Shown piece by piece: positions 26,123 to 51,155 of a stretch of DNA of 64,000 nt. Within the stretch, counting starts at the first letter, position 1. The number at the start of each line of letters is the position of its first letter. The translations under genes were made by a program, and so were the position numbers. Source of the stretch: Parcubacteria group bacterium GW2011_GWA2_43_13 (GTDB lineage: Bacteria; Patescibacteriota; Patescibacteriia; UBA9629; GWA2-43-13); contig LCFM01000005.1 in NCBI GenBank assembly GCA_000999025.1, positions 7,087 through 71,086 on the forward strand, read 5' to 3'. The notes beneath the pieces were generated by a model that made no database searches, was not told the DNA's origin, and worked only from the letters and a program-made list of their open reading frames with translations.

Positions 26123-26124
26123 TT

Positions 26125-27363
26125 ATGATTATTGGTATTGACTTTTCCCGCGGTGAGATGGAACATCGCACCGGTGTGGAGTGGTATAGTCATAATATTG
26201 TTAAGCATCTACTTGATCTCGGCGCAGAGCACGAGATTGTTTTATATTCACGGAGGGGTGGGGTTTCCTCGTGTTGTAGAGATGGGGTTAACCCTGTCTC
26301 TATGGTGCATCTTCGCTGGCCATTCCGATTCGGCTGGACCCAGTTTCGTTTATCATTAGAAATGGTTCTGCGTCCGCCAGATGTATTGTTTGTACCATCG
26401 TATATTTTACCACCCATAACACCTAAACGCGTGGTAACTATGGTGCATGATGTCGCGTTTAAACGCCATCCAGAATGGTATTCTCAAAAACAAATACGAG
26501 TATTGGAATTAGGGATACGAAGGATTATTAAGAAACGTGTTGTTGTATTAGTGCCAACGGAATTTGTGAAACGAGAATTATTAAAGTTGTATCCGGAAAT
26601 GTGCGATTTGGATATTCGTGTCATTCCACATGGCGTTGATCACACGTTGTTTCGTCGTCGTTCCCCCTCGCCTTTACAAGGAGAGTCCGCTCCGCCAGCT
26701 GGTGGATGGCAGAGGGGTGAGGTGGTGGATACGAAAGTAGTACCCCCATCCCCGTATTTCCTCTTCATCGGTCGCTTGGAAAGTAAAAAAAATATTTCCC
26801 ATATTGTGGATGCATTTGTAGAGTTCGTCGGCGACGTTCCCTCGCCTTTACAAGGAGAGGGAAGGGTGAGGTCTTACGTAAAATCCGGCGACGTAGAGAC
26901 GGGGTTTCCGCCAGAGGCGGATCACCCACAGGGGGAAACTCCGTCTCTACAGACATCTCTCCTCCTCGTCGGTCGTCCTGGCCATGGTTACGAAAGATTT
27001 GCTCATAAATTGAATCATCCCAATATTCATGTTATACCATCGGTATCAGCCGAAGAATTGGTAATACTCTATCAAAATGCAATCGCATTGGTATTTTCAA
27101 CATTATACGAAGGGTTTGGTATGCCCATTCTTGAGGCCATGGCATGCGGATGTCCGGTAATCACCTCAAAAGGCGGTGCGTACGAAGAAGTGGCAGGAAC
27201 TGCCGCGTTATTGGTTGATCCTCATAATATATTAGATATTGCGGATGCAATGATAAAGATTCAATCAGGGGGCTGGAAGGAAAAAGGGTTAAAAAGAGCG
27301 CATCAATTTTCATGGGACGCATCAGCCCAACAAACATTAGCACTCGTATGCAACAAATATTGA
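26125..27363 (+). CDS. glycosyltransferase family 4 carrying in-frame repeat insertions
   Basis: N-terminal GT4 domain and C-terminal EGFGMPILEAMACGCPVITS motif. The middle (26650-26990) is built from family-A and family-B repeats translated in frame (SPSPLQGE..., VPSPLQGEG..., DVETGFPPEADHPQGETPSLQT). Confidence 0.75.
   Translation: MIIGIDFSRGEMEHRTGVEWYSHNIVKHLLDLGAEHEIVLYSRRGGVSSCCRDGVNPVSMVHLRWPFRFGWTQFRLSLEMVLRPPDVLFVPSYILPPITPKRVVTMVHDVAFKRHPEWYSQKQIRVLELGIRRIIKKRVVVLVPTEFVKRELLKLYPEMCDLDIRVIPHGVDHTLFRRRSPSPLQGESAPPAGGWQRGEVVDTKVVPPSPYFLFIGRLESKKNISHIVDAFVEFVGDVPSPLQGEGRVRSYVKSGDVETGFPPEADHPQGETPSLQTSLLLVGRPGHGYERFAHKLNHPNIHVIPSVSAEELVILYQNAIALVFSTLYEGFGMPILEAMACGCPVITSKGGAYEEVAGTAALLVDPHNILDIADAMIKIQSGGWKEKGLKRAHQFSWDASAQQTLALVCNKY
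26276..26303. repeat. family-A element copy inside GT4 gene
   Basis: GTAGAGATGGGGTTAACCCTGTCTCTAT. Confidence 0.7.
26653..26727. repeat. family-B element copy (CGTCGTCG..CCTCGCCTTTACAAGGAGAG..GGTGGATGGCAGAGGGGTGAGGTGG)
   Basis: Shares the CTCCTTTACAAGGAGAG palindrome and GGGGTGAGGT tail with copies at 26826, 28191, 29295 and 50848. Confidence 0.7.
26826..26872. repeat. family-B element copy
   Basis: CGTCGGCGACGTTCCCTCGCCTTTACAAGGAGAGGGAAGGGTGAGGT. Confidence 0.7.
26893..26950. repeat. family-A element copy with 30-nt internal loop insert
   Basis: GTAGAGACGGGGTTTCCGCCAGAGGCGGATCACCCACAGGGGGAAACTCCGTCTCTAC. Confidence 0.7.
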
Positions 27364-28781
27364 TATTTATTGTATTGGTAAGTTTGCCAGCATATTTGAT
27401 TCGGTTTGAGGTTTTTGGTATTCCAACCACGCTTTTGGAAATGGGAATTTATGCGGTGGCGTGTCTCCCGCTTCTTTACAATGAGAATCCGCTCCGTCAT
27501 CTGGCGGATGGCGGAGGGGTGAGGTGGAAGAAGAGATTCGCTGAGATGTTCCATCTGTTCAAACCATACCTCTGGCCATTACTGCTCTGGCTGGGAATGA
27601 CAACAGTGTCTGCTATAGTGAGCGCTACGTACGGGGATTGGATGTTGGGTTTTGGGATTTTGAAGGGATGGTTTTTTGATCCATTGTTGTTGACGTGGGT
27701 GGTTATGGCGTGTAGAGACGTGGCGGTGCCGCGTCTCCGTGGGAACGTGCCAGGTGGAGACGCCCCAGCGAGGCGTCTCTACAATATGCGTCTATTACTC
27801 GCCACAGGCCTTCTTGCTTCTGCGCTTATAATCAGCGCGTATGGATTATTTGATTACATGATGGGTTGGACGCGTGATGGTAGGTTAGATGCATTTTTTA
27901 AAACTTCAAATTATGTGTCCATGTTTATTGTGCCGGTATTGATATTGGGAGTAGGAATGATTGTAGAGACGCCCCCCTGGGGCGTCTCCGTCGCGCGCTG
28001 GAAATCGGCGCTGATGATCATTGTCATGATTATGATAACTACCGCTCTTATCCTCACCAATTCTTTTGGCGGCTGGATAAGCGCGTTGATTGGGGTAGTT
28101 GTTTTTTTCGTTTTTTTCTTACGACACCAAACACCCCCTTCCTGTCCCTCTTCCCATCACAAGGATGGGGCACAGCAAGAGGGGAGCGATCGTCGTCCCC
28201 CTCTCCTTTATAAGGAGAGGGTAGGGGTGAGGTGTTGGCGCATAGTTTTTATACTCATATCTCTCATGGTTCTTGGTGCTTTCGTCTGGTACGGCTTACC
28301 CCGTCACTTTACTCACCGCAACGAATTTTTTAATGTAACATCTTCCCAACTGCGACAAAATTTATGGCGTGTGGCAGGGGATATGGTGCAAACCCATCCG
28401 ATACTTGGTGTGGGGCTGGGAAGATTTCAAAAAGAATTGCCAATTCTTATAAAACAAAAACCGCACCTTTTGACGGTTCAAACGATATTAGTTGATTTTC
28501 ATCTTCCGCATAATTTATATCTGACAATCGCATCAGAATCCGGGCTCATCGCCTTGCTTGGTTTTCTATGGTTTATCGGGTTATGGTTATGGCGTGGAGC
28601 AAAACAATACATATCAACCCGTGATCCTATACTTCTCGGCGCACTCTGCGCCATGCTTACTATTCTCATCCACGGCTTTGTAGACACTCCATATTTTAAA
28701 AATGATTTATCGATATTGTTTTGGATAGTAGTGGTGATTGGAGTTTTGTCATCCTCAGAACGGAAGTATACCGTTTTGTAG
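27312..28781 (+). CDS. O-antigen ligase/polymerase-like (Wzy_C family) polytopic membrane protein carrying five in-frame repeat copies
   Basis: Multi-TM. GVGLGRFQKEL...HLPHNLYLTIASESG resembles the O-antigen ligase domain. True start may be the ATG at 27348. Family-A copies at 27712, 27756 and 27963, and family-B material at 27503 and 28191, are all read in frame. Confidence 0.6.
   Translation: MGRISPTNISTRMQQILIFIVLVSLPAYLIRFEVFGIPTTLLEMGIYAVACLPLLYNENPLRHLADGGGVRWKKRFAEMFHLFKPYLWPLLLWLGMTTVSAIVSATYGDWMLGFGILKGWFFDPLLLTWVVMACRDVAVPRLRGNVPGGDAPARRLYNMRLLLATGLLASALIISAYGLFDYMMGWTRDGRLDAFFKTSNYVSMFIVPVLILGVGMIVETPPWGVSVARWKSALMIIVMIMITTALILTNSFGGWISALIGVVVFFVFFLRHQTPPSCPSSHHKDGAQQEGSDRRPPLLYKERVGVRCWRIVFILISLMVLGAFVWYGLPRHFTHRNEFFNVTSSQLRQNLWRVAGDMVQTHPILGVGLGRFQKELPILIKQKPHLLTVQTILVDFHLPHNLYLTIASESGLIALLGFLWFIGLWLWRGAKQYISTRDPILLGALCAMLTILIHGFVDTPYFKNDLSILFWIVVVIGVLSSSERKYTVL
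27712..27738. repeat. family-A element copy
   Basis: GTAGAGACGTGGCGGTGCCGCGTCTCC. Confidence 0.65.
27756..27782. repeat. family-A element copy
   Basis: GGAGACGCCCCAGCGAGGCGTCTCTAC. Confidence 0.65.
27963..27989. repeat. family-A element copy
   Basis: GTAGAGACGCCCCCCTGGGGCGTCTCC. Confidence 0.65.
28191..28232. repeat. family-B element copy
   Basis: CGTCGTCCCCCTCTCCTTTATAAGGAGAGGGTAGGGGTGAGGT. Confidence 0.7.
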
Positions 28782-28829
28782 AGACGGGGTTCCATAATCA
28801 CAAGGGCGTGGCAAGAACCCTGTCTCTAC
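28778..28829. repeat. family-A element (long-loop variant) at convergent gene junction; probable bidirectional terminator
   Basis: GTAGAGACGGGGTTCC...GAACCCTGTCTCTAC. Its GTAG and CTAC termini are the stop codons of the plus-strand gene (TAG 28779-28781) and of valS on the minus strand (28826-28828). Confidence 0.7.
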
Positions 28830-31660
28830 GCAAGCTTGTTTAATTTTTTTTGCGCTTGGTGGAGTTTAGATTGTTCGGTTTGTATGACTGCTTTGGGCGC
28901 CTTTGCGAGGAAATCTTGATTTGAAAGTTTTTGCTCAAGAGATGTGATGTAATGTTCCAATTCTTTTTTTGCTTTATTGATTTTTTTATCATCGCGCGGG
29001 ATGTGCAGGGTGAGGGAGATACCATGTTCGTGGATAGTGTGGCCTTGGGTGTTTGTTTTGGTTTGATTGATAAATGTTACGCGTGCCAGTTTTTCGATGA
29101 GGAGGATATTGGGGGATATTCGGCGTTGTAGAGACGGGGTTAACCCCGTCTCTACAACGAGCGACGGTTCTATTTTAAACTCCGCCCGCGCGTTGCGGAT
29201 GGCTGTGATGATGGCACGGATAGTGGCGTGGTGTTTGAGGGCAGGTGAGGATTTAATGGTTGGTGATTTGGGGTAGGGGGCGATGAGGATCAATGACGAC
29301 GACACACCCTTCTGCCCCCTCTTAATAGAGGGGGAAACATCGTCGTCGTCCCCCTCTCCTTTACAAGGAGAGGGTAGGGGTGAGGTTAAGGAGGGGGTGG
29401 TATTTAATTCTCCCCACACTTTTTCCGTAATAAACGGGATAAACGGATGCCAGAGGCGTAACAGAGTTTGTAAAATATATAATAATATTTCGTTTTTTCC
29501 CTGTTCAATCTTTACAATCTCCACATACCAATCTGCAAATTTATCCCAGGTGAATTCGCGCAATTTTTCTCCGGCTGGTGAAAATTCAAAATTATCCATG
29601 TGCTTGGTAACATCATGGATCAAGATATCTAATTCTGCCAAAATCCATTCATCACTTAATGTTTGTGCTTTTGGTTTTTTTTCTATCAACTGTGGTGTAT
29701 CAACGGTGGTAAGAATAAACCGCGAGATATTCCAGAATTTATTGATAAAATTCCTAAACCCTTCAATTTTTTCCTCATACATTTTTATGTCATTACCCGG
29801 GGTGGAGCCGATAATTAAGGATAATCGCAACGCATCTGTGCCGTATGTTTGAATCATCTCTACTGGATCAATCCCATTGCCTAATGATTTTGACATTTTT
29901 CTGCCTTCTTTATCCCGCACCATCCCGTGAAGATACACGGTTTTAAAGGGGATTTGTTTAGTGTTATAGGTTGTCATTAAAATCATACGCGCAACCCAAA
30001 AGAATAAAATCTCATACCCTGGCGCCATGACTGAAGTTGGGTGGAATGTTTTAAAATCAGGCGAGCGTTTCAGCCATTCGGCAAGGGATTCATCTTTTTT
30101 TATTTTCGTATCAAGTAGGGTTGAAAATGTCCACAAGGCAGACGAGAACCATGTGTCCAATGTGTCCGGGTCCTGGGTAAACGTGGTGCTTCCACAGCGC
30201 TTGCATTTTTTAGGTTGCTCAATACTGGCGAGCGGGGGGCACGATTTTTTGATTTCGTCCGCCAGCTGGCGGATCGGATTTCGGATTTTTGTTTCGCAAT
30301 ACCAAACCGGCACTCTGTGTCCAAACCAAATTTGGCGGGAAATGCACCAGTCCTGTAAATTATTTATCCAGTGAAAATATGTTTTTTTAAATCTGCTCGG
30401 CAAAATTTCAATATCCTCGGATTTAACCACATCAATGGCAACTTCCTTGAGTGTTTTCTTTTTTCCTTTCCATACAACAGCTGGTTTATCCACGCTCATA
30501 AACCATTGCAAAGAAAGATACGGCTCAACCACTGCATCACAACGATAACAATGCCCAATATTATGTATGTGTTTTTCTGTTTTTTTCAGCAGTCCACGTT
30601 GTTGTAATTCCTCAATAATAAGTTTGCGAGCATCAGCAACAGCCCAGTTTTTGTATTTTCCGCCGTGATCATTGAGTGTGCCGTCAGGGTTGAGGATATT
30701 GATATATGCAAGATTGTGGCGTTTAGCGATTTGATCATCATTAAAATCATGCGCAGGAGTTACCTTTACCGCGCCGGTTCCAAATGAGGGGTCCACATGT
30801 CTGTCCGCAATGATTGGAATTTCGCGATTTGCAAGCGGAAGGGTAACAGTTTTGCCAATAAGATGTTTGTATCGTTCATCTTTTGGGTTGACTGCAACGG
30901 CCGTGTCGCCGAGCATGGTTTCCGGACGGGTTGTTGCGACGGTTATTTTGCCCCCCCCTCCTAAGGTAGGATGGGGTGGGGGGAGGTCTGAATTTTTTAT
31001 CGGATAATCAATATAATACAATATTCCTTCTGTTTCCGCGTATTCCACTTCGTCATCCGCAAGCGTGGATTCACATCTTGGACACCAATTGACCAACCGA
31101 TTGCCGCGAACAATCAATCCGTCGTTGTACATGTTTACAAATACTTTTTGTACGCATTTGGTAAGCACAGGCGACATGGTATATGCTTCGCGCGACCAAT
31201 CGCAACTTGCGCCTAATTTTCGCAGTTGATGTTCTATGGTTGTTTTTGATTCTTCAACATACTGATTCACGCGTTCCAAAAATTTTTCACGCCCTAAATC
31301 GTGCCGGGTTTTTCCTTCTTGCGAGATTAGTTTTTCTACCTTATTCTGAGTGGCAATAGCGGCATGATCCACACCCGGCACCCATAGTGTTTTTTCTCCT
31401 TTCATGCGGTGATACCGTACAATCACATCGTGCAGAGATGTTTCCATGGCATGGCCAAGATGCAACACCCCGGTTGCGTTCGGCGGTGGCATCATTAAAG
31501 AGAATGGCTTTATCTTTTTTCCTGAATAATGATCTGGATTAAAAAATCCTGACTGCTCCCATTGTCGGTATATGCCATCCTCAATTTTTTGAGGATCGTA
31601 TTGTTTGGGTAATTCGGCCTGTTTCCGCGTTTTTGATAGTTTTTTAGTGCCTTTTTTCAT
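28826..31660 (-). CDS. valS: valine--tRNA ligase
   Basis: HIGH (PNATGVLHLGHA) and KMSKS (KMSKSLGNGIDP) motifs, editing domain. 944 aa including approximately 60-80 aa of repeat-derived insert near the C-terminal coiled coil. Confidence 0.95.
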   Translation of the reverse strand: MKKGTKKLSKTRKQAELPKQYDPQKIEDGIYRQWEQSGFFNPDHYSGKKIKPFSLMMPPPNATGVLHLGHAMETSLHDVIVRYHRMKGEKTLWVPGVDHAAIATQNKVEKLISQEGKTRHDLGREKFLERVNQYVEESKTTIEHQLRKLGASCDWSREAYTMSPVLTKCVQKVFVNMYNDGLIVRGNRLVNWCPRCESTLADDEVEYAETEGILYYIDYPIKNSDLPPPHPTLGGGGKITVATTRPETMLGDTAVAVNPKDERYKHLIGKTVTLPLANREIPIIADRHVDPSFGTGAVKVTPAHDFNDDQIAKRHNLAYINILNPDGTLNDHGGKYKNWAVADARKLIIEELQQRGLLKKTEKHIHNIGHCYRCDAVVEPYLSLQWFMSVDKPAVVWKGKKKTLKEVAIDVVKSEDIEILPSRFKKTYFHWINNLQDWCISRQIWFGHRVPVWYCETKIRNPIRQLADEIKKSCPPLASIEQPKKCKRCGSTTFTQDPDTLDTWFSSALWTFSTLLDTKIKKDESLAEWLKRSPDFKTFHPTSVMAPGYEILFFWVARMILMTTYNTKQIPFKTVYLHGMVRDKEGRKMSKSLGNGIDPVEMIQTYGTDALRLSLIIGSTPGNDIKMYEEKIEGFRNFINKFWNISRFILTTVDTPQLIEKKPKAQTLSDEWILAELDILIHDVTKHMDNFEFSPAGEKLREFTWDKFADWYVEIVKIEQGKNEILLYILQTLLRLWHPFIPFITEKVWGELNTTPSLTSPLPSPCKGEGDDDDVSPSIKRGQKGVSSSLILIAPYPKSPTIKSSPALKHHATIRAIITAIRNARAEFKIEPSLVVETGLTPSLQRRISPNILLIEKLARVTFINQTKTNTQGHTIHEHGISLTLHIPRDDKKINKAKKELEHYITSLEQKLSNQDFLAKAPKAVIQTEQSKLHQAQKKLNKLA
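29128..29155. repeat. family-A element copy (canonical) inside valS
   Basis: GTAGAGACGGGGTTAACCCCGTCTCTAC perfect 28-bp palindrome. Translated as VETGLTPSL. Confidence 0.8.
29295..29386. repeat. family-B composite element inside valS
   Basis: GACGACGAC...CCCCCTCTTAATAGAGGGGG...CGTCGTCGTCCCCCTCTCCTTTACAAGGAGAGGGTAGGGGTGAGGT. Translated (minus strand) as SPLPSPCKGEGDDDDVSPSIKRGQKGVSS. Confidence 0.7.
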
Positions 31661-31760
31661 ACTATTATAGAGTAGCGATTTTTAGCGGTTTTATCAACAA
31701 GTATTGGCCCAACGCCCTCTGTATCTCTCTTTCGATGTGCGATGCGAATGAAGGCAGTTT

Positions 31761-32897
31761 TTATTTTAGCCGCAGATTTGGATCTGCGGTTATTTTTCTG
31801 TAATCTGTTTTTTGTTTTGAGTATTTTGTTTTTACCAATGCGGCGATGGCGATCATGGCGGCGTTGTCAGCCGAGGTGCCGGGGAGAGGGAAGCGGAGAT
31901 CAGTTTTCGGTTTTCGGTTTTCAATTTTCAGTTTTTCTGTGAGTTGGTTTCGGAGGTGTTGATTTGCGGCGACACCGCCACCGACAACAAGGGTTTTAAT
32001 ATGGTAGTGTTCAACTGCTCGCAGGGTTTTTATAACTAACACATCAATTGCCGCGTTTTGAAATTCGCATGCGACTTGCGCGCGATTATAATCGGGGTGT
32101 TTTTCTATCAAATATCGCACTGCGGTTTTAAGTCCCGAGTAACTGAAGTTGAAGTCAGGAGAATCAATCATCGGGCGAGGGAATGTTATGGGCAATCCTA
32201 ATCTACTAATAACATCCGAATCTACGAATACGGGGCTGTCGTCTGTAGAGACGGGGTTAACCCCTCTTCTATGGTGTATTATTTGTAGATTAGGATGCAT
32301 TCGTATATTGGGATTGCTCCATTCGGATGCCTCTTGTTCTATCGCTGGACCGCCAGGATAGGGAAATCCTAAGAGTTTTGCTACTTTATCAAATGCTTCG
32401 CCCACCGCATCATCAATCGTTGTCCCGATAATCTCAAAATCATAGTGCTGTTTCATAAGCACCAATTGCGTGTGTCCGCCAGATACCAACAGCGCAAGCA
32501 CGGGAAATTGAAAATCATCAACATTTTTTAGTGTTGAGTAAATATGGCCAGCCATGTGGTTTATAGGAATGAGCGGTTTATTCCATGCCAGTGCCAGCGT
32601 TTTTGCCGTCTCTACGCCGATATGCAATGCCGCTATAAGACCGGGGCCCTGCGTTACGGCAATGCCGTCTATATTTTGATACGAAATATGAGCGGCATCA
32701 AACGCTTGTGTGATAACAGGGATGATATTGAGGATATGGTTACGCGCGGCAATTTCCGGTATGACGCCACCATATTGTGCGTGAATTTTGGCTTGCGATG
32801 CGATGATATTTGACACAATAGCAATAGCACCATTTGTTTCTTGTACAATGGCGGCCGCGGTTTCATCGCATGATGATTCAATTCCAAGGATGATCAT
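31761..32897 (-). CDS. tsaD: tRNA N6-adenosine threonylcarbamoyltransferase TsaD (Kae1/YgjD family) carrying in-frame repeat insertions
   Basis: MIILGIESSCDETAAAIV..., HMAGHI and GGVAAN motifs. Start moved to ATG 32897. Contains a nested family-C/family-A insert (32192-32316) and a family-D heptamer array (31897-31945). Confidence 0.9.
   Translation of the reverse strand: MIILGIESSCDETAAAIVQETNGAIAIVSNIIASQAKIHAQYGGVIPEIAARNHILNIIPVITQAFDAAHISYQNIDGIAVTQGPGLIAALHIGVETAKTLALAWNKPLIPINHMAGHIYSTLKNVDDFQFPVLALLVSGGHTQLVLMKQHYDFEIIGTTIDDAVGEAFDKVAKLLGFPYPGGPAIEQEASEWSNPNIRMHPNLQIIHHRRGVNPVSTDDSPVFVDSDVISRLGLPITFPRPMIDSPDFNFSYSGLKTAVRYLIEKHPDYNRAQVACEFQNAAIDVLVIKTLRAVEHYHIKTLVVGGGVAANQHLRNQLTEKLKIENRKPKTDLRFPLPGTSADNAAMIAIAALVKTKYSKQKTDYRKITADPNLRLK
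31897..31945. repeat. family-D heptamer tandem array (CAGTTTTCG GTTTTCG GTTTTCA ATTTTCA GTTTTTC)
   Basis: Five degenerate 7-mer units, in frame in the tsaD C-terminus. Related arrays at 16414, 16851 and 51996. Confidence 0.6.
32192..32316. repeat. composite nested element: family-C palindrome with a family-A element (32245-32272) inserted at its centre, inside tsaD
   Basis: GCAATCCTAATCTACTAATAACATCCGAATCTACGAATACGG-[GTAGAGACGGGGTTAACCCCTCTTCTAT]-...ATTTGTAGATTAGGATGCATTCGTATATTGGGATTGC. Compare the insert-free copy at 26029-26122. Confidence 0.75.
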
Positions 32898-33018
32898 AAT
32901 ACTTTCCACATTAACGGAATTTTGTTTTGCGGTAAAGTATAGTTGACTTGATATGAGGATTTCGTTATCCTTGCTTATGTTTAGATGAGACGAAAAGGTG
33001 TTATACACATGAAATCAA

Positions 33019-33090
33019 GGCCCCTTCGTCTAATGGTTAGGACGGCAGGTTTTCATCCTGTAAACAGGGGTTCGATTCCCCTAGGGGCTA
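33019..33090 (+). tRNA. tRNA-Glu (anticodon TTC)
   Basis: GGCCCCTTCGTCTAATGGTTAGGACG..., anticodon loop TTTTCAT, T-loop GGTTCGATTCC. CCA not encoded. Confidence 0.8.
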
Positions 33091-33094
33091 CATA

Positions 33095-33130
33095 TAAAAT
33101 AACCGCCGTAAAAGCGGTTATTTTATATTA
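33095..33130. terminator. rho-independent terminator after tRNA-Glu
   Basis: AACCGCCGTAAAAGCGGTT hairpin followed by ATTTTATATT. Confidence 0.6.
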
Positions 33131-33194
33131 GTGTTTTAATATGAGATATGGCTTTAGTTGCGTTTTATTCAGCTGTTTTCTATACTATCACTAT

Positions 33195-33674: not shown

Positions 33675-33676
33675 TA

Positions 33677-33898
33677 ATGATTCCTATGATTGCGGGGGTG
33701 ATTGAACGATTTGATGATTATTATGTTGTGATTCGCACTCGTGAGGGGGAGATTCTGTATTGGCCAAAACGAGATATACCCAAAGATAGCGTTCCTGGTG
33801 CTATAGTATATGCAATGCTTTCTTCTCAACCGTATACTCATCCTTTGCAAGTGGATCCAAAGCATATTCTCAATACGTTATTGCTTGGATCAGAATGA
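33677..33898 (+). CDS. small DUF3006-like protein
   Basis: 73 aa. IERFDDYYVVIRTREGEILYWPKRDIPKDSVPG resembles the DUF3006 pattern. Confidence 0.4.
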   Translation: MIPMIAGVIERFDDYYVVIRTREGEILYWPKRDIPKDSVPGAIVYAMLSSQPYTHPLQVDPKHILNTLLLGSE

Positions 33899-37150: not shown

Positions 37151-38185
37151 ATGAATACTTCATTGTTTGATTATCATCTTCCAAAAGAGCTCATAGCTCA
37201 TGAGCCAATAACACCCCGCGATTCAGCGCGGGTGTTTGTTGTGGAGGGGGAGGTGCGTCATCATGATTTTTTTTATAATATTGGGAAATATGTTAAAAAA
37301 GGCGATATTCTTGTGCGTAATGTTACAAAGGTGTTTCCAGCGCGTCTTTATGCTACAAAAATGACTGGAGGTAAGGTAGAGATTTTATTAGTCCGTCCAT
37401 TAGACGGTTCTCGATGGGAGTGTTTAGTAGGGGGACGCGCAAAAGACGGGATGGAGGTGCGATTCGATTGTAGAGACGTGCCCTTGGCACGTCTCTCGGA
37501 AACGCCCCAGGGGGGCGTCTCTATGATATGGATTATAGATTTCGGGCAAAATATAGATAACCTTGGAACACTCATTGAAACCGCAGGTCAAACGCCCGTG
37601 CCACCATATATTCACACCGATATGGCGGAGCAGGAATTGCGCGACCGATATCAAACAATATATGCGCATAAAAGTGGTTCAGTGGCGGCGCCAACCGCTG
37701 GCCTGCATTTTACTGATGAATTGATAGATCAGTTGAAACGCCAAGGTATTGAATTTTTAGACATTATTTTGCATGTGGGGATTGGCACTTTTTTGCCTGT
37801 AAAAACGAAAAACGTAGAAGATCACTCTATGCATGCCGAGTATGTAGATATCTCAAATGAGGTTGCACAAAAAATATGTTCAGCAAAATATGAAGGCCGA
37901 CGTCTCATCGCTATTGGAACAACTACGACCCGTGCGCTTGAGGCGTGCGCAGATACACTGTTATTAGGTAAAGGATATACAGGCGAGGTGAATATATTTA
38001 TAACGCCTGGATACGAGTTTCGTATGATTGATGGATTGGTGACTAATTTTCATCTTCCAAAATCAACATTACTCATGCTGGTTTCTGCGTTTGCAGGCCG
38101 TGAAAATATCCTTTCTTGTTACCAAGAGGCCATTGCATTGGGCTACACATTTTACTCTTTTGGTGATGCAATGCTGATAAGTTAA
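37151..38185 (+). CDS. queA: S-adenosylmethionine:tRNA ribosyltransferase-isomerase QueA carrying two tandem family-A insertions
   Basis: MNTSLFDYHLPKELIAHEPITPRDSARV... and conserved QueA blocks. 37469-37523 translates as DCRDVPLARLSETPQGGVSM. Confidence 0.9.
   Translation: MNTSLFDYHLPKELIAHEPITPRDSARVFVVEGEVRHHDFFYNIGKYVKKGDILVRNVTKVFPARLYATKMTGGKVEILLVRPLDGSRWECLVGGRAKDGMEVRFDCRDVPLARLSETPQGGVSMIWIIDFGQNIDNLGTLIETAGQTPVPPYIHTDMAEQELRDRYQTIYAHKSGSVAAPTAGLHFTDELIDQLKRQGIEFLDIILHVGIGTFLPVKTKNVEDHSMHAEYVDISNEVAQKICSAKYEGRRLIAIGTTTTRALEACADTLLLGKGYTGEVNIFITPGYEFRMIDGLVTNFHLPKSTLLMLVSAFAGRENILSCYQEAIALGYTFYSFGDAMLIS
37469..37495. repeat. family-A element copy
   Basis: GTAGAGACGTGCCCTTGGCACGTCTCT. 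Confidence 0.65.
37498..37523. repeat. family-A element copy (partial left arm)
   Basis: GAAACGCCCCAGGGGGGCGTCTCTAT. Confidence 0.6.
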
Positions 38186-39636: not shown

Positions 39637-39811
39637 CTCACTCGATTGAATCGCTCCGCACCTTTCCGTTCAATGGGTTTTGGTATTCAACGGAAGAGAG
39701 CGAAGCGGCTCCGCCTCACATCTATGATTTTAAAGAAGATCATTCGCGAGAAAGGTGTGGGGTTGCAGACCCCATGCCTGACCATTGTTGGTTTGTCATT
39801 TGTGTCGGCTT

Positions 39812-39839
39812 GCAGAGACGGGGTTAACCCCGTCTCTGC
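39812..39839. repeat. family-A element copy (GCAGAGACGGGGTTAACCCCGTCTCTGC) in the polA upstream region
   Basis: Canonical centre GGGGTTAACCCC. Located between tRNA-Cys and the polA start. Confidence 0.7.
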
Positions 39840-39957
39840 AACTAAAAACACATCAACTGTACCAAGATTAGTGCCAAAATGCAACTATTCAAAAAGGATG
39901 GAGGAAGGTATACTGGTTGGAGTAATACCACCTCATCTCTCTTGGGGAGGCCGAACT

Positions 39958-43655: not shown

Positions 43656-43665
43656 TATAAAAATA

Positions 43666-43693
43666 ATGAGACGCCCCAACGGGGCGTCTCTAC
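43666..43693. repeat. family-A element copy at convergent junction holA/rpsT; probable bidirectional terminator
   Basis: ATGAGACGCCCCAACGGGGCGTCTCTAC, 10 bp after the holA stop and 12 bp after the rpsT stop. Confidence 0.7.
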
Positions 43694-43704
43694 AATTTCT
43701 ACAA

Positions 43705-43977: not shown

Positions 43978-44044
43978 AAGATAAATGTATTACATATATA
44001 CAAGACGTACAAAACCATATCATACTTTATTTGTCAGCGCAAGA

Positions 44045-44968: not shown

Positions 44969-44977
44969 AGATGTTTG

Positions 44978-46534
44978 CTATGTGCGTTTTTTGCGTAAGA
45001 GAAATCTGGTAATGCCAAATATTCCAAGAAGAAGGGGGATAATCACAATATTACCCCATTTGATGAACATTTTTTGCGTTTGATCAAGTTCTTTAATCGG
45101 TCGCATATCAATGATACGGGCGCGGATTGACAGTAATGCTTCATCTTGCGCCGCCGCGTCAATGATGTTTAACGCAAGGACCACGTTGGGCGTGAATTGC
45201 GCAGTGAAATTATCTTTAAGAAAATCGCTGTCTGCAATCGCAAAGATACGTGCGTTTGTTGTATTATTCTTTTTTTCTGATAATGGAGATTGTGATGATT
45301 CCAGTATTGGCGGAGCGTCTTTCTCTTTAAAATAACTTGAGGCAGCACCTATTATTTGCGCGGCAATAACGCGTTTTCCCTGTTGAGACCCTGCTTGTTG
45401 ATTCGTGGGGTCAAGCGATTCGGTAATTGGTTTTTCCCATGCGCGATCAGTGGTTTCAATAAGCGGTTGTGCGGCGTCATTTGAAATGGTGTAGTCAGCA
45501 GACCATGGGAATACCACTCCTTCCAACCGATTCACCAGAGCGCTTTCTTTATTCATACCGGTTTGAGGTACTTTAACCCATAATGGGTATTGGGTGATAA
45601 ATTGTCCGAATTGCGTTCTGAACGATGCCAATGAGTTTGAAAGATCGCCGATGATCACATTATTTTGTTTGATGCCGTATGATTCAAGAAGAGAATTGAG
45701 TCCAGTGTCTAATGGTTCTGCTTTCAGATTATCGCCAATCGTGTGCGACTCGGAAAATATCACTAATGATTTATCCTGCATCACAAATTGATCAATCAGA
45801 TAGAGCTGTGATTGTGAAAACGGTTGTGTGGGGCCTGCGATTATCAGGACGGATAGATCTTCGGGAAGAGTCGTTGTTGTTTCAAGATCAATATCCTGCC
45901 ATTCGTATCGTTGGCGTACATCTTTGACAATGCTTTGAATCTGTTCTTCAGAAGAAAGCGTGCCGTTGCTTGTAACGTATCCGATAACAGGCGTTGACGA
46001 TCGGGTAATTTTTTTAATACCTGCGGTAAGATCATACTCAAGCGTTTCTATTGAATTGATCACCGGAATGCCTTCTTTTTTATCACCATAGAAAATGCCT
46101 ATTCCCATATATCCTTGCGCAAGTTCATATTTGTCGTTTTCAATGATTTCAAATTGGATAGAAGGAACGCCGACAGTCGCGAGTTCGGTTTCAATACCTG
46201 GCGTTTCTTTAGGATCAATAAATGTAATCAACAGTTTGCCGTGCGATTGGGCCGCGTATTCTTCCAATAAATCTCGAACATTATCCCGAATTGGACGCAG
46301 GCGCGCATTTAAGTCCTTTGAAAAATACGCTTTGATATTAACGATATCATCAAGCGTGTTGAGGGTTTGTTTGGTTACGGGGGATAAGCTGAATTCTTTA
46401 TTTTTCGTGAAATCAAAACGGACCTGTGTAACAGAAACAATAAGGTTGAGTACGAGTAAAGAGGCGGCGATAATTGCTATGAGCGTTTGTGCCTGCACTC
46501 GTTGTGATTGCTTTTTAGAAAGGGAGAATTTCAT
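44978..46534 (-). CDS. GldG-like ABC-transporter auxiliary component
   Basis: N-terminal TM, large periplasmic domain, C-terminal TM (RFLLRKKRT). Start moved to ATG 46534. Operon with ABC-2 permease and ATPase. Confidence 0.6.
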   Translation of the reverse strand: MKFSLSKKQSQRVQAQTLIAIIAASLLVLNLIVSVTQVRFDFTKNKEFSLSPVTKQTLNTLDDIVNIKAYFSKDLNARLRPIRDNVRDLLEEYAAQSHGKLLITFIDPKETPGIETELATVGVPSIQFEIIENDKYELAQGYMGIGIFYGDKKEGIPVINSIETLEYDLTAGIKKITRSSTPVIGYVTSNGTLSSEEQIQSIVKDVRQRYEWQDIDLETTTTLPEDLSVLIIAGPTQPFSQSQLYLIDQFVMQDKSLVIFSESHTIGDNLKAEPLDTGLNSLLESYGIKQNNVIIGDLSNSLASFRTQFGQFITQYPLWVKVPQTGMNKESALVNRLEGVVFPWSADYTISNDAAQPLIETTDRAWEKPITESLDPTNQQAGSQQGKRVIAAQIIGAASSYFKEKDAPPILESSQSPLSEKKNNTTNARIFAIADSDFLKDNFTAQFTPNVVLALNIIDAAAQDEALLSIRARIIDMRPIKELDQTQKMFIKWGNIVIIPLLLGIFGITRFLLRKKRT

Positions 46535-46613
46535 ATTATTATCAAGCGAGCAAGCGAAGAGCAAAATCATTTGCTCTTCCGAGCGAGCGCAGATAACACA
46601 GGGGTAATACCCT

Positions 46614-47330
46614 TTATTTCCAGTGTCTGCTTTTGAGTGTGTAGATGTTGAGGGATAAAAATAGAATAATGAGAGAGCCAAAGTAGACGATATCACGGAT
46701 ATCAAGCACGCCGCGCGCCAAACTTTCAAAGTGAGTTGATGTTGAGGCAAGGCGGAAGATATCAGCCATCACTCCTTTAAGGGTACTTAAGACATAGGCC
46801 TGTCCAATCATCATGAGCGTAAAGAGAATCAAAAGAGACAAAAGAAACGCAATAATTTGATTTTTTGTGAGAGATGACAGCCATTGTCCAAGCGCAAGCA
46901 TTGCTCCTGCAAGCAGGATGACTGCGATATACATGCCAATCACCGCGCCTGTGTCAATATTGCCGAGTACTGCGACTGTCAAAGGCACCGGAAGTGTGCA
47001 TAACAGGATAAATAAAATAAGGCAGAGAGCGCTGATAAATTTTGCAATCACCGCCTCCCAGTCCTTAAGTGCGGTTGTCAATAAAAATTCAATGGTTCCG
47101 TTTCTTTTTTCTTCCGCCCATATTCGCATGGTGATGGCTGGAATGACAAACAAAAACACCCAAGGGAAAAAAGCAAAATATGATCGCAGGTTAGCTTGAG
47201 CATCAATGAAGAATCTTTCAAAATACAGCCAACTGTTTACCATCACAAATACAAACGCGACAATATAGGCGATAGGGGAATTGAGCATGAGCAGGATTTC
47301 TTTTTTTATCAAAGCAATGATGCGAGACAT
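46614..47330 (-). CDS. ABC-2 family transporter permease (GldF-like)
   Basis: Six TM helices. AEEKRNGTIEFLLT motif typical of ABC-2 permeases. Confidence 0.7.
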   Translation of the reverse strand: MSRIIALIKKEILLMLNSPIAYIVAFVFVMVNSWLYFERFFIDAQANLRSYFAFFPWVFLFVIPAITMRIWAEEKRNGTIEFLLTTALKDWEAVIAKFISALCLILFILLCTLPVPLTVAVLGNIDTGAVIGMYIAVILLAGAMLALGQWLSSLTKNQIIAFLLSLLILFTLMMIGQAYVLSTLKGVMADIFRLASTSTHFESLARGVLDIRDIVYFGSLIILFLSLNIYTLKSRHWK

Positions 47331-47413
47331 ACAGAATGTAAAAAGTAAAATGGCAAAGTAAAATTTAAAGAGAAAGATTTTTATATTTTACATTGTCATT
47401 TTACTATTTTATT

Positions 47414-48201
47414 TTATGTGGTGAGTTTTCTAAAGATATCTTCAAGAGAAACGCGTTCGCGGTAGAGTTCCATAATCGGCCAGTGGTTGCGTGCGGCAAG
47501 GGTAAAGATATCTTCACGCATGTCATGATGCGCGATAATCCGAAAGCGGCAACAATCTTGCTCTGTCGCGGAATGGGGTTCAACTTTTTGAATATCTGGA
47601 AGTTGTTCGATTTCTGATTGTATGGAGTCCGATGGTCCCTTGAGCGTGAGGATAATGTTTTCTTTTGCAGAGCCCGCTTGTAGCAGTTCTTCGGTGGTCC
47701 CTTGTGCAACGATGTTTCCTTCATGGATAATAATCATTCAATAAGGTCAGGGTTGTGGACTAATGATTGGGCAATGCCGACGCGTTGGCGGAATCCTTTG
47801 GAAAGGTCGCCGATTGGTTTATGGAGCATTTTTTCTAATCCGCATGATTGGACCATTTCACTGATGCGGGATGCGCGTATTGCGCGTGGCACACCCCGCA
47901 GTTCCGCGACAAACGCAAGATATTCTGATACCTGAAATTCATCATACAAGGGGTTTCGTTCCGGTAGGTAGCCGATTTTTGCGCGCGTTTCATCTGGATG
48001 ATCTTGGATATCCATGCCATCAATGCTCACACTGCCGCTGGTTGGAGCAGTATAGCCGGTAATGATTTTCATGGTCGTTGTTTTGCCGGCTCCGTTCGGG
48101 CCTAAAAAACCAACCACTTCGCCGCTTTGAACGGAAAAAGAGACATTATTGACTGCAGTAACGTCTCCGAATTTTTTTGTGAGGTGGTTAATTTCTATCA
48201 T
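47414..48201 (-). pseudogene. ABC transporter ATP-binding protein (GldA-like) disrupted by an internal deletion plus frameshift
   Basis: N-terminal piece (48201-47734) has Walker A GPNGAGKTT, Q-loop and LSKGFRQRV signature, then stops at ...NPDLIE*. C-terminal piece (47737-47414, other frame) begins at the post-H-loop IIIHEGNIVAQG. Walker B, D-loop and H-loop (about 45 aa) are absent. Confidence 0.55.
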
Positions 48202-48338
48202 AGGTGCACCGAATGGTTAGCAAATCGTATTGTAAAAGAAAGGTCTTTTTAGTGCAAGCTATGTGTTGGGGATAGAGTGTGATTTGGTATTTGGGTATAA
48301 AAAAGAATTCCCGACTTCTGCGACCAGAAAATCGGGGG

Positions 48339-48722
48339 TTATGGGAGTTTATGGGATCCTGGCGCGCCAACAACCACCGTTTTCTGCGATGATGTCGCAG
48401 GGTGAGGCCGTCGGGCGCTACGTTGTTGTCCGTGGGAGCCGACGACAGGCACCTTACTGGACTTTGCCTCACGAACAGCTGCTTTTTTTATTGCGTCTGT
48501 CGTGGCATGATCCACCATCTGAAGGGATTGGGTGGCGGATGCCAGGGATAGTTGCTTTTTCTCTCCGTCAGGGAGAGTTTTGAGTATATCAACTATGCTC
48601 ATATACTCGGAGTTCGCGGCGAATAACGCCCTTTGAGCTCCTTGTAATTGTAATTTCGACAGTCCCTTGAGGTGCGCTATGCGCGCCTCAACTAACTGCC
48701 AGAGTGCCTCTATGGTTGCCAT
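48339..48722 (-). CDS. hypothetical protein
   Basis: 127-aa ORF, helical N-terminus and basic low-complexity C-terminus. No recognised motif. Confidence 0.35.
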   Translation of the reverse strand: MATIEALWQLVEARIAHLKGLSKLQLQGAQRALFAANSEYMSIVDILKTLPDGEKKQLSLASATQSLQMVDHATTDAIKKAAVREAKSSKVPVVGSHGQQRSARRPHPATSSQKTVVVGAPGSHKLP

Positions 48723-48936
48723 TGGTACTCCTTCCTTGGTGAGAGATTACATGATTTAACCATAGTTTCACGATAAAAGTCAATAGAAGCTATTGTTGCC
48801 ATAGGTATGTTGTGCTATAATACTAATATTGAAGTTTATTCACTCATTATTTAATTGTTATTGCAACATTAATCAGGCGAGGTTTTTCGTTATTTAACTC
48901 AATGTTTAATAATGAAAAATTTTAGTCATGTAATCT

Positions 48937-49500
48937 ATGTTTAATGGTCGCGAATCGGGAAATATTATTCCCCCCCCCGACAGAGCAGAGGAAGGCAGTC
49001 CTGAAATACCAGGACCTATTTTAACTCCTCCACCAGATCGGGGACCAAAGGTTCTGCCGGATAAAGAGTTGATTCAACTTCGGAGGGATACTAATCAAAG
49101 ACAGCAAGAAGCGTTCCATGATCAGAGGAAAGAGAATCAAGGGAAGGAAGATAAGGGTAGTGCAGAGAGTGAAGGATATATACCGGGGGTTGATTTATTA
49201 GTGACAGATTTTGAGAATCAAGGAGCGGGGTTGGAGTCGCGTAATGGGGAAGAAATAGCTAGAAGAATTATAGAGAGGGATTTTAAGAAACTTATTACTG
49301 AGTTTAGTAGTGGTGATGTATCGCGGCTTCGTGAAGTCATTAGCGCGTTTAGGAAACGTGACGAGAAGAGTAGCATTGCAGGGGTTTTGGAGAAGATTAT
49401 CAATTCGTCAGATATTACAAATTCCCCCGAGATGGTTGCTGGGAGGTTTTTATCGAAAAATGAAGCAGAAACGGATCAGGGGACAGAAGCGGCTGGCTAA
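48937..49500 (+). CDS. acidic, low-complexity hypothetical protein
   Basis: 187 aa, Pro/Glu/Asp/Gly-rich, purine-rich coding strand. No signal peptide or known motif. Confidence 0.4.
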   Translation: MFNGRESGNIIPPPDRAEEGSPEIPGPILTPPPDRGPKVLPDKELIQLRRDTNQRQQEAFHDQRKENQGKEDKGSAESEGYIPGVDLLVTDFENQGAGLESRNGEEIARRIIERDFKKLITEFSSGDVSRLREVISAFRKRDEKSSIAGVLEKIINSSDITNSPEMVAGRFLSKNEAETDQGTEAAG

Positions 49501-49561
49501 TGAGGGAGATATTTTGTTGGTTGGATACGCGGTAGTCATCTTAAAATTATATCTTATTACT

Positions 49562-50068
49562 ATGGGTAGAGAAACAGGGGGTTATACCCCAGAAGATACA
49601 TCAAAAGAAGCACAGGTGCCCGTGCCAGAACAAGATGAGTCCGATGATGCGCCTAAAAATTTGTTAGAGTTTTTTAGGTCAACCGAGGAGATGGAGGTGA
49701 ATGGGCCACCAGCAGCTCCACTAACAGAAGAAGAACAGGCGGCAATGGATGCGACAATCTTTGTCCCAGAAAAACAGACGGCAGCTGAGGCAGCTGCAAT
49801 ACAGGCGGAAATTGATGCTTATAATGATGGGCATAGACTTTCTACTATAGAAGAGGATGAGGCACAAGATGAGGCACAAGATGAGGCGAGAGTGACAAAA
49901 GGAGATCGAATACTTGCTTACGTAAATTCTCAGGAAAGAGCAAGGGCAGAGGAAAAAAAGGCGGAAAACGAAGCGTGGGCAAAGGCAGCGGCAGAGAGGA
50001 AAGAGGGCAAAATGATACGGGATATCAAGAAAACTATAGATGAGTTGAATGAACAACCAAAGGAGTGA
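49562..50068 (+). CDS. acidic Glu/Ala-rich hypothetical protein
   Basis: Start at ATG 49562 (MGRETGGY...). Contains EAQDEAQDEA repeats. The ORF-track version (49310) overlaps the previous gene in another frame. Confidence 0.4.
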   Translation: MGRETGGYTPEDTSKEAQVPVPEQDESDDAPKNLLEFFRSTEEMEVNGPPAAPLTEEEQAAMDATIFVPEKQTAAEAAAIQAEIDAYNDGHRLSTIEEDEAQDEAQDEARVTKGDRILAYVNSQERARAEEKKAENEAWAKAAAERKEGKMIRDIKKTIDELNEQPKE

Positions 50069-51155
50069 TTATCATAATTTGTTTGATGATACTTGATTTA
50101 TACAGTTCCGGTTTATAGGCGTCTAATCGGAGAACGTGGGTTTTAAACCCGCGTTCTTTTAGTTCTTTGCGCAGTTGAGTTTCGCTATATGCTTGGTCAT
50201 ATCCTAAACAGATTAGATTTGGAGAATATTTTTTAATCAATGCAAAGTAATCAGTTTCATCGCCGATATATGCATCATCTACATACTTCAACGCTTTAAT
50301 GTGTTGAAGTCGTTCTTGTTGCGTATAGATTGGTGGTTTCTTTTTTTGTTTCATAACATTGTTGTCTGTTGTAATAACAACAATCAGCTGGGAGCTGAAT
50401 TTTTTTGCCTGCTGAAAAAAATATTCATGGCCTTTGTGGAGTAGGTCGAATACGCCAAAGACCATGACTGTAGAGTTTGTATGGGGTGGTGGGAGAGTGG
50501 GTAGTGTGATTGCGTCGTCCAATGTGAAATCACCAATCGCGGTGCGGCTGAGGGATGTAAGATACGCGCCGTATCCGAGTGATTTGCCGATGTCATGACC
50601 AAGCGTGCGGATATAGGTTCCGCTTGAACAATGCACGTCTATTGTGAGATGTGGCCATTTATATGAGATGAGATCAATAGAATAGATTTCTATCTCATGC
50701 GGTTTGCGTTCTATCTCTTTGCCTTGGCGGGCAAGCTCATAGAGTTTTTTTCCATTCACTTTTTTTGCTGAGTACATGGGAGGGGTTTGGAGTTGGCGAC
50801 CGAGAAAGGAGGATAATGTGGTTTCGAGTTCGACTGTTTTTTCTAATACCTCACCCCAACCCTCTCCTTGTAAAGGAGAGGGGGTTACGACGCCCGTTTT
50901 ATCCTGCGTGTCGCTGGTTGCGCCTAAAAAGAGGATTGCGCGGTATTTTTTATCTAACCCAACAAAGTATTTTAATAATTTAGTAGAGGACCCAATAGCC
51001 ATAATCAACAACCCGTCTGCAAACGGGTCAAGTGTTCCTGCATGGCCAATCTGTCTGATGCCAGTGATACGGCGGAGCTGGTTGACTATGTCATGCGATG
51101 TCGGGCCAGCAGGTTTATTGATGAGTAAAAATCCATTCATACTGCCAGTTTTCAA
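50034..51155 (-). CDS. truB: fusion protein: tRNA pseudouridine(55) synthase TruB catalytic domain + C-terminal cytidylyltransferase-like nucleotidyltransferase domain (RibF FMN-adenylyltransferase-like)
   Basis: N-terminal 225 aa are TruB (LLINKPAGPTSHDIV, GHAGTLDP catalytic Asp motif) with a family-B insert. C-terminal approximately 140 aa (from MVFGVFDLLHKGHEYFF, ...YKSSIIKQI) have HxGH and ISSTxIR-like nucleotidyltransferase motifs. No PUA domain and no riboflavin-kinase domain. Confidence 0.7.
   Translation of the reverse strand: MKTGSMNGFLLINKPAGPTSHDIVNQLRRITGIRQIGHAGTLDPFADGLLIMAIGSSTKLLKYFVGLDKKYRAILFLGATSDTQDKTGVVTPSPLQGEGWGEVLEKTVELETTLSSFLGRQLQTPPMYSAKKVNGKKLYELARQGKEIERKPHEIEIYSIDLISYKWPHLTIDVHCSSGTYIRTLGHDIGKSLGYGAYLTSLSRTAIGDFTLDDAITLPTLPPPHTNSTVMVFGVFDLLHKGHEYFFQQAKKFSSQLIVVITTDNNVMKQKKKPPIYTQQERLQHIKALKYVDDAYIGDETDYFALIKKYSPNLICLGYDQAYSETQLRKELKERGFKTHVLRLDAYKPELYKSSIIKQIMIITPLVVHSTHL
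50848..50891. repeat. family-B element copy (reverse orientation) inside truB
   Basis: ACCTCACCCCAACCCTCTCCTTGTAAAGGAGAGGGGGTTACGACG. Translated as TPSPLQGEGWGEV. Confidence 0.7.

Follow-up and report, generated by a model that had tools for sequence, protein, structure and literature searches.

In a 64,000-nt stretch of the genome of Parcubacteria group bacterium GW2011_GWA2_43_13 (contig LCFM01000005.1, positions 7,087 to 71,086; hereafter the window), a short hairpin repeat, family B, is present in six copies, all six of them within intact genes, that is, within long open reading frames (ORFs). Comparison of the repeat and its neighbourhood across genomes suggests that family B belongs, as a sublineage, to the intrastrand-triplex repeats of bacteria and is a small non-autonomous selfish element, with nuclease genes of the DUF559 family as its likely partner; we put the probability of this at about 0.6. 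Triplex repeats (PIT, TM, BoxC) have been known since the 1990s, and we know of no origin, spreading mechanism or partner gene that has been assigned to them. The bracketing of DUF559 genes by such units offers a testable candidate for the mechanism of spread and the partner gene, and DUF559, a large family of unknown function, gains a candidate substrate.

Family-B copies in the window and the 37-nt unit

Both strands of the window were searched with CCCTCTCCTTTACAAGGAGAGGG, allowing up to 3 mismatches. Matches were found at 26665, 26839, 28199, 29352 and 50860, the three perfect palindromes match on the opposite strand too, and none is expected by chance (100 dinucleotide shuffles). De novo repeat finding recovered the family independently (groups D2, D7, D8, I3 and I4). 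All copies placed by the initial annotation, which was made from the letters of the window, are present by sequence inspection, mismatch search and repeat finding; the four genes that it named as hosts (GT4, O-antigen-ligase-like gene, valS and truB) all hold copies, and the translations that it quoted are correct in each, including TSPLPSPCKGEGDDDD for the segment in valS. Its partial tail at 27503 is indeed a tail, but not a partial copy: it is the end of a full, degenerate copy at 27465-27525 with a 28-nt hairpin in the linker, which is 84% identical to the unit at 26663 (repeat group D7) and is translated in the Wzy-like gene as PLLYNE...GGGVRW. The copies, their parts and their host genes are:

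26119-27363: GT4 glycosyltransferase gene, host of units 26663 and 26837
26653-26662: CGTCGTCGTT, directly 5' of unit 26663
26663-26723, plus strand: family-B unit, long form, gene-sense in GT4; Y-arm CCCTCGCCTT, loop TAC, R-arm AAGGAGAG, 28-nt linker hairpin, tail GGGGTGAGGT; translation SPSPLQGE..GGWQRGEV
26686-26713, plus strand: linker hairpin TCCGCTCCGCCAGCTGGTGGATGGCAGA ('family C' type), between purine arm and mirror tail of unit 26663
26837-26872, plus strand: short-form family-B unit in GT4, stem with one mismatch; translation VPSPLQGEGRVRS
27312-28781: Wzy_C/O-antigen-ligase-like gene, host of units 27465 and 28197
27465-27525, plus strand: family-B unit, long form, degenerate, in the Wzy-like gene; translation LPLLYNENPLRHLADGGGVRW; linker hairpin at 27488-27515
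28197-28233, plus strand: family-B unit, perfect hairpin with loop TAT, in the Wzy-like gene; translation PPLLYKERVGVRC; CGTCGTC prefix at 28190-28196
28826-31660, minus strand: valS, host of unit 29350
29315-29334, minus strand: second unit of B type, CCCCCTCT-ATTA-AGAGGGGG, with its own degenerate co-varying tail (..GGGTGTG) on the minus strand
29350-29386, plus strand: family-B unit, perfect, antisense to valS; translation TSPLPSPCKGEG; composite with the palindrome 29315-29334
30254-30278, minus strand: solo copy of the linker-hairpin family, TCCGATCCGCCAGCTGGCGGACGAA, in valS; coincides with a lineage-specific insertion (..IRQLADEI..)
50034-51155, minus strand: truB-cytidylyltransferase fusion, host of unit 50848
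50848-50884, minus strand: family-B unit, perfect, gene-sense in truB; translation TPSPLQGEGWGEV

The units at 29315-29334 and 29350-29386 form an inverted pair, and inverted (CGT)n runs flank them at 29295-29304 and 29341-29350. The window belongs to a metagenomic contig of 92.7 kb. The TruB protein of the window is identical to a protein labelled Candidatus Jacksonbacteria, a lineage of the Patescibacteria or candidate phyla radiation (CPR).

Alignment of 87-90 dereplicated sites yields a universal unit of 37 nt with sharp boundaries, CYCCCTCTCCTTTAYAAGGAGAGGG-NN-GGGGTGAGGT. In it, a pyrimidine arm of 10 nt and its purine complement enclose a loop of 3 nt, and a linker of 3 nt leads on to a G/T-rich tail. 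In terms of its stem, family B reads CCCTCTCCTT-TAY-AAGGAGAGGG-NNG-GGGTGAGGT, and its 37-mer is CCCCCTCTCCTTTACAAGGAGAGGGTAGGGGTGAGGT. The palindrome thus comprises 10+3+10 nt and not the 17 bp initially proposed, and the CGTCGTC that had been counted as part of the element is absent from the universal unit: it is restricted to the Jacksonbacteria lineage and a few others. Only a weak preference for T is visible at positions -2 and +4, and the flank profile of 87 sites contains no conserved tag (GTAG/CGTC).

The exact 29-nt core CCTTTAYAAGGAGAGGGNNGGGGTGAGGT was found in a species-representative collection (one genome per species) in more than 116 genome stretches at least, belonging to several phyla; the motif is not confined to the window, as the initial annotation had considered possible. 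The majority of the matches listed is from Patescibacteria (Nomura-, Moran-, Komeili-, Sacchari-, Magasanik- and Falkowbacteria), others are from isolates of Nostocales (Scytonema, Brasilonema, Nostoc, Rivularia), and Gastranaerophilales are also represented. The core is present, too, in metagenome-assembled genomes (MAGs) deposited under the labels Gammaproteobacteria, Bdellovibrionales, Kapaibacterium and Bathyarchaeia. The viral_contigs collection has no match to the core and a phage vector is therefore unsupported, no Rfam family matches it at the gathering threshold or at E<=1, and a literature search with the unit as sequence string returned unrelated human papers only. With regard to a rule by replication strand, the G-tail lies on the C-rich strand in 78 versus 34 cases in other genomes and the window shows the opposite in 5/6 copies, a strand bias that cannot be separated from the orientation of the genes.

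The tail mirrors the purine arm

Pyrimidines alone make up the 5' arm of the hairpin and purines alone the 3' arm, and the tail, set off by the 3-nt linker, is the purine arm reversed, with G corresponding to G and A to A or T. In the three perfect window copies, all with a 3-nt linker, the mirror match is 9/10 (28197), 10/10 (29350) and 10/10 (50848). The element had been described as directional: the asymmetric tail agrees with this, but the description is incomplete, as the tail is a mirror copy of the arm next to it.

Because stems vary among lineages, the covariation between arm and tail can be tested, and this was done with 153 asymmetric-arm hairpins that adjoin DUF559 genes. The agreement between the G-rich flank and the mirrored arm of the same unit is 0.827 of positions, in comparison to 0.72 (sd 0.007) when tails are permuted among units. 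The mirror exceeds the direct repeat in 94 versus 18 hairpins, 67 units are perfect, and the linker has 3 nt in 67/107 units. With a fixed register and no optimisation, chi-square is 193 for the mirror and 25 for the direct repeat. Two other readings of the tail, as Watson-Crick partner of the 5' arm and as direct repeat of the 3' arm, were considered and rejected, as the asymmetric stems favour the mirror by that same margin of 94 to 18. The tail could also be read as a G-quadruplex, but this would not predict that A in the arm corresponds to A or T in the tail.

The code G.G-C, A.A-T, T.A-T is that of antiparallel purine-motif triplex pairing. Since the tail mirrors this arm, the purine one, a single-stranded unit could fold as a hairpin with the tail as reverse-Hoogsteen third strand, following this code; we infer triplex folding of the family-B variant from its sequence, and the ViennaRNA folding of the copies covers the hairpin only. 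The same mirror relation places the unit with the intrastrand purine-motif triplex repeats (PIT/TM/BoxC-like) and not with REP, RPE (both discussed below) or MITEs (miniature inverted-repeat transposable elements). A relaxed triplex scan of the window detected only noise beyond the known copies. Linker variants with a small hairpin (GCCCGAAGGGC and similar) are widespread, and the position of the linker hairpin of unit 26663 holds mini-hairpins in other lineages; thus, the two long window copies with their 28-nt hairpin fit one fold, and they are equally readable as nested insertions.

DUF559 nuclease genes are bracketed by units

Pfam searches identified DUF559 (PF04480, Vsr-like PD-(D/E)XK) adjoining intergenic copies in Nostoc, Gastranaerophilales and Kapaibacterium. 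A hidden Markov model was built from these three proteins and run on the loci that had been selected by family B: all DUF559 ORFs detected (7/7) have B-type units on both sides, and these frequently extend over the ribosome-binding site (RBS) or the stop codon. As an independent test, 80 metagenomic loci were chosen only by a DUF559 peptide pattern. A C-rich perfect hairpin with pyrimidine and purine arms is present within 200 nt upstream of the gene in 62/77 loci and downstream in 55/78, and the density of such hairpins is 5.3 per kb near the gene in comparison to 0.18 per kb at distances above 300 nt. Mirror-tailed units are found in 51/80 loci; in the commonest layout (24 loci) the upstream unit is forward and the downstream unit reverse, often with a doublet on each side of the gene (doublet-gene-doublet). 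An arm 7-mer is common to both sides in 36/46 loci, compared with 31% for cross-locus pairs, and DUF559 proteins of units with shared arms are slightly more alike (47.5% versus 45.0% identity, exceeded in 0/500 permutations). Annotated DUF559 proteins of isolates (Nodularia, Kamptonema) even end in peptides that are derived from a unit, for example ..SPPAPLLIKERGV.

The DUF559 gene of E. coli K-12, ycjD, has a canonical TMECO repeat (CCCTCGCCCC-TCT-GGGGAGAGGG-TTA-GGGTGAGGGG) 166 nt downstream. There are 23 TMECO copies in the 4.6 Mb of E. coli (PMC4666352) and the chance of finding one this near ycjD is, by our own arithmetic from these numbers, well under 1%. The 311-nt stretch downstream of ycjD is covered to at least 80% in only 3,371 of 5,426 complete E. 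coli genomes. A duplicated fragment of about 50 nt from the 3' end of ycjD lies between ycjD and the TMECO (NC_000913.3 extract L203, 5205-5476, minus strand).

In two unrelated metagenomic or MAG loci (L034, 5845-5996; L148, 402-624) the DUF559 cassette lies about 0.5 kb from a tRNA gene pair, which could hint at an insertion preference. On a Rivularia contig (L071, 527-1369), the ORF nearest to a B unit has a GIY-YIG domain, a second nuclease family beside a unit. The DUF559/Vsr clade includes the homing endonuclease I-Bth0305I; among the papers we found that mention DUF559, no title or abstract links the family to repeats.

Family-B segments in comparison with orthologues

Alignments with orthologous proteins and genes indicate that the family-B segments are insertions. 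The segment in TruB corresponds to an 8-residue gap in comparison with the solved E. coli TruB; it is absent in orthologues of 59-60% identity and present or multiplied in closer ones, and these closer ones have an additional unit at a second site, where the window has none. The segment in valyl-tRNA synthetase (ValRS) is absent in orthologues of up to 55% identity. Two relatives with about 80% ValRS identity (L120 and L121) have the composite of palindrome and family B at the same site as the window, with the orientation inverted, and the composite of one of the two has another kind of hairpin nested where arm and tail meet. At the first GT4 site, a unit is found at the matching DNA position in the window and in L120 but in different frames (RRRSPSPLQGE versus AVVVPPLLYKERVGERW), and the site is empty in L121. 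The second GT4 site (26837) has decayed counterparts with different loops in L120 and L121 and is empty in a third relative, L122. The copy at 28197 in the Wzy-like gene is absent from the orthologues of L120 and L121. A seeming strain-level indel in the Wzy-like protein (477 versus 489 amino acids) was discarded, because it is caused by a difference in the start-codon call only and the DNA is identical.

These patterns of absent, inverted and decayed units indicate that units are gained, lost, inverted and decaying, and that several units gather in permissive loops. An alignment of the segments to conserved residues, the outcome that the initial annotation had named as speaking against its proposal, is not seen: TruB has a gap, and ValRS, TruB, GT4 and Wzy orthologues lack the segments. 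Its suggestion that the element acts at the level of nucleotides is borne out by the GT4 site 1 DNA, which is read in two frames, and by the valS composite, which is inverted between species. Mobility with in-frame survival is likewise supported, with mobility itself deduced from the patterns of presence and absence.

Reading frame and residence in genes

Two of the six frames of the 37-nt unit always contain stops, and 89/120 copies are located where no stop interrupts a run of 100 codons or more. Of the units in CPR loci, 84% (71/85) are in open frames of at least 100 codons compared with 89% of random 37-mers; units thus fall into coding sequence with about the frequency of random positions. 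In non-CPR loci the values are 46% of the units and 84% of random 37-mers, and outside CPR the units are mainly intergenic.

The base in the loop depends on the frame. With frames labelled by the strand relative to the gene (same or opp) and the frame offset, T is found in frame same-0 once, in opp-0 46 times and in opp-1 14 times and C is found in same-2 8 times, in opp-0 4 times and in opp-1 16 times, all counts being inflated by orthologous redundancy. T in frame same-2 would give a TAA stop, and C in opp-0 would give Cys. In-frame survival is selection and not a design of the element. Of the two properties that had been expected of inserted copies, a stop-free host frame is found for all six, which lie in intact genes, but the length is not a multiple of three, as the unit has 37 nt. 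With this length, the frame would have to be restored by flanking indels under selection, and a unit would persist only where the local frame is free of stops and the peptide falls into a tolerant loop, a requirement that would account for every window copy being in frame. The frame-dependent loop base is a clean natural case of protein-level selection on a DNA-level parasite.

Alternative explanations

The main rival does without a mobile element: structure-prone units would spread by slippage, template switching, gene conversion and recombination, DUF559 would be a host repair or structure-processing nuclease, and its gene would merely be regulated by the units or trapped among them (the 'instability hotspot' view of Holder et al.). 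Consistent with this, TM loci are hypervariable in E. coli with no mobility genes reported nearby (PMC4666352), about 2,000 of 5,426 E. coli genomes lack part of the region downstream of ycjD, the permissive sites in truB, valS and GT4 have gathered copies repeatedly, 5/6 window copies lie within 3 kb, and there is no target-site duplication. Local instability thus explains site hotspots and clustering, but not the near-identical 37-mers at about 90 precise, unrelated sites in unrelated genes and phyla, which local processes cannot seed; sharp unit boundaries and the presence of cognate units on both ends of DUF559 genes also argue against it, and we consider it unlikely. A REP/REPIN-type element, moved by a RAYT or an IS200/IS605-like HUH (Y1) transposase that acts on the hairpin in single-stranded DNA, would share with family B the hairpin with asymmetric flank, the missing target-site duplication and the inverted doublets, which are found in Scytonema and beside DUF559 genes; moreover, GTAG-type palindromes (family A, see below) coexist in the window and the window copies have a CGTC-like prefix, as CGTC-tagged REPs do. 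The universal unit, however, has neither a GTAG nor a CGTC tag, it is unlike the GTAG and CGTC families that have been described in its stem composition and its mirror tail, and the recurrent neighbour is DUF559 instead of an HUH gene: among 50 ORFs searched with Pfam (30 of the window and 20 beside intergenic copies) there is no Y1_Tnp or other transposase. This makes a REP origin very unlikely. A MITE, expected to derive from an IS and to have terminal inverted repeats and a target-site duplication, was rejected as well, given the lack of target-site duplications (k=2-5) and a size of 37 nt that is far below that of MITEs.

The units could also be a functional module under selection rather than selfish DNA, for example as a motif of the peptide, as an RBS or an element of translation control, or as a sequence for DNA uptake or recognition. 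The strong sequence conservation across phyla would fit, as would the few cases, often DUF559, in which the tail (GAGGT) is the Shine-Dalgarno sequence of the downstream gene, but RBS placement is seen in only 2-3 of about 31 non-coding copies, and a general role of the tail as RBS was rejected for this reason. The unit is, furthermore, read in four frames and both orientations to give unrelated peptides, it is absent from orthologues, and its low, clustered density is unlike that of uptake sequences; PIT motifs are described as lacking promoter or terminator activity (PMC4666352). A selected function is therefore highly improbable.

Several observations weigh against the reading that we prefer, a selfish triplex element with DUF559 as partner. 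Three samples are 99.94-100% identical over the region and show no strain-level insertion polymorphism. The dereplicated sites have no target-site duplication beyond permutation at any offset (k=2-5) and no strong target motif. No DUF559 ORF is present in the window, in the roughly 10 kb beyond it (about 74 kb in total) or in the syntenic loci of L120-L122, and PD-(D/E)XK nucleases are enzymes that cleave DNA without rejoining it, so that the full chemistry of transposition is missing. The exact-pattern scan favours conserved copies, which is a sampling bias, and the taxon labels of MAGs may include mis-binned contigs. For TMECO, no triplex footprint was found in vivo, and the duplex is formed when the complementary strand is present (PMC4666352).

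Proposed mechanism and meaning

Under the preferred reading, the units would relate to DUF559 cassettes as REPINs do to RAYTs, in the role of non-autonomous partners: the DUF559 nuclease would recognise the folded structure of the unit, and host repair would complete the copying. The unit would be gained, lost, inverted and nested as a small selfish element and would, in the gene-dense CPR genomes, land in coding sequence. The genes of the small DUF559 nucleases have cognate units on both sides in many lineages, an arrangement analogous to that of RAYT genes and REP/REPINs, and DUF559 is most likely the trans-acting partner of the units; it may be the mobilising enzyme of an active transposition. 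It is conceivable, as a tentative extension, that triplex units and DUF559 genes together constitute an unrecognised cross-phylum replicator of the REPIN/RAYT kind, in which the nuclease reads the fold and drives the copying of 37 nt. If true, this would explain both the BoxC/TM repeats of E. coli and cyanobacteria and the peptide insertions in essential CPR proteins. The streamlined CPR genomes, about 1 Mb in size, are tolerant of tiny selfish repeats in valS, truB and cell-surface genes. Some insertions in CPR proteins for which there was no explanation are accounted for by units, and annotators should be aware that these segments are not conserved domains.

Other repeats and genes in the window

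The palindromes of family A are of the GTAG type, (T)GTAGAGACG-loop-CGTCTCTAC(A), and the modules in their loops (GGGTTAACCC, CCCCnnnnGGGG) are interchangeable; many copies are in genes, and the family resembles the GTAG-tagged REPs (Di Nocera 2013, PMC3733652). The copy at 26893-26950 has a TCCGCCAGAGGCGGA hairpin nested in its loop. Copies of family A are found at:

414-447, 26274-26306, 26893-26950, 27708-27783, 27959-27992, 28778-28829
29126-29158, 32243-32275, 37466-37530, 39810-39842, 43661-43694

A third family of small hairpins with a TCCGCC..GGCGGA core is present at 26686-26713, 27488-27515, 30254-30278 (minus strand) and 26906-26920, solo in valS, nested in family-A loops and in the linkers of family B; this nesting suggests a hierarchy of tiny elements that insert into one another. 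Repeats of 38-41 nt (GCAATCCTAATCTAC..), both direct and inverted, are located at 26008-26048, 26085-26122 and 32171-32229 (D17, I6) and flank a block of about 6 kb with GT4, Wzy, valS and tsaD, which contains 5/6 of the B copies and many A copies.

A LAGLIDADG homing-endonuclease ORF (13695-14144, minus strand; Pfam E = 3e-25) lies directly 3' of the 16S rRNA gene (14449-15836, minus strand); a 23S rRNA was not detected in the window. The ATPase of an ABC transporter appears to be split into two overlapping ORFs, 47414-47737 and 47734-48201 (minus strand), with the N-terminal part of ABC_tran and the DrrA C-terminal domain, respectively, which may reflect a frameshift or a programmed overlap. 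The window also contains dnaA (22974-24344), and the GC skew is positive over all 64 kb with no change of sign.

Comparison with known repeats

PIT motifs were reportedly described by Hoyne and Maher in 2000. TMECO, the current name of these motifs, which are linked to BoxC, is CCCTCNCCC-N3-6-GGGNGAGGG-N3-GGGNGAGGG, a 9-nt C stem followed by two G stems with 37 nt in total (Holder 2015, PMC4666352). It forms a stable class II triplex in vitro, as determined by circular dichroism and nuclear magnetic resonance; TMECO/TM repeats are abundant in Enterobacteria and cyanobacteria, occur singly or as inverted pairs, are always intergenic in E. coli and are tied to local variability, with no flanking gene function and no mobility gene near TM loci (PMC4666352). 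The window copies 28197, 29350 and 50848 have the three blocks of the ITxF definition (CCCTCTCCTT / AAGGAGAGGG / GGGTGAGGT(T)); their stem of 10 nt, loop of 3 nt and linker of 3 nt are within its size limits (6-15 nt and no more than one mismatch for stems, 1-6 nt for loops), 9-10 of 10 triads are allowed ones, and the third block covaries as mirror of the arm, as described above. Copies 26663 and 27465 exceed the loop limit by their 28-nt linker hairpin, and 26837 has one stem mismatch.

Family B thus resembles TM/TMECO in its three-block layout, its 37 nt, its conserved multicopy nature, its occurrence singly or in inverted pairs, its presence in cyanobacteria and the local variability. The stem, in contrast, is not that of the TMECO/BoxC consensus: it is CCCTCTCCTT/AAGGAGAGGG with A/T at the loop end, compared with CCCTCNCCC in TMECO. 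Family B differs further by its CPR host, its residence in coding genes where it is translated in frame, its long variants with a linker hairpin, and the linkage of B-type units to DUF559 nuclease genes.

With REP/REPIN (Di Nocera 2013, PMC3733652; Bertels and Rainey 2011, PMC3116915), family B has in common hairpin units of 20-40 nt, an arrangement as singlets or inverted doublets, the flanking of a nuclease-type gene and the presence of some copies in genes. Differences are the universal unit without tag, the mirror block, which has no REP counterpart, and the partner, a PD-(D/E)XK nuclease of DUF559 instead of a tyrosine HUH enzyme. The RPEs of Rickettsia are selfish palindromic DNA that lies in frame in essential genes of a reduced genome, where the extra peptides are tolerated; they are about 100-150 bp long, known only from Rickettsia, of unrelated sequences and without a triplex-type mirror block. 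Family B shares the in-frame insertion of a palindrome (6/6 window copies), a match in behaviour only, as sequence, size and host differ. SDR1-8 of the Nostocaceae are, according to what Elhai et al. are said to have described in 2008, hairpin repeats of 21-27 nt that nest in one another and can lie in genes; reportedly they are known only from Nostocaceae, without a nuclease partner or a triplex model. Compared by description only, family B is similar in its nesting and shares the host group for some of its copies. What goes beyond the published work that we found is the routine in-frame residence in CPR genes and the strong, general association with DUF559.

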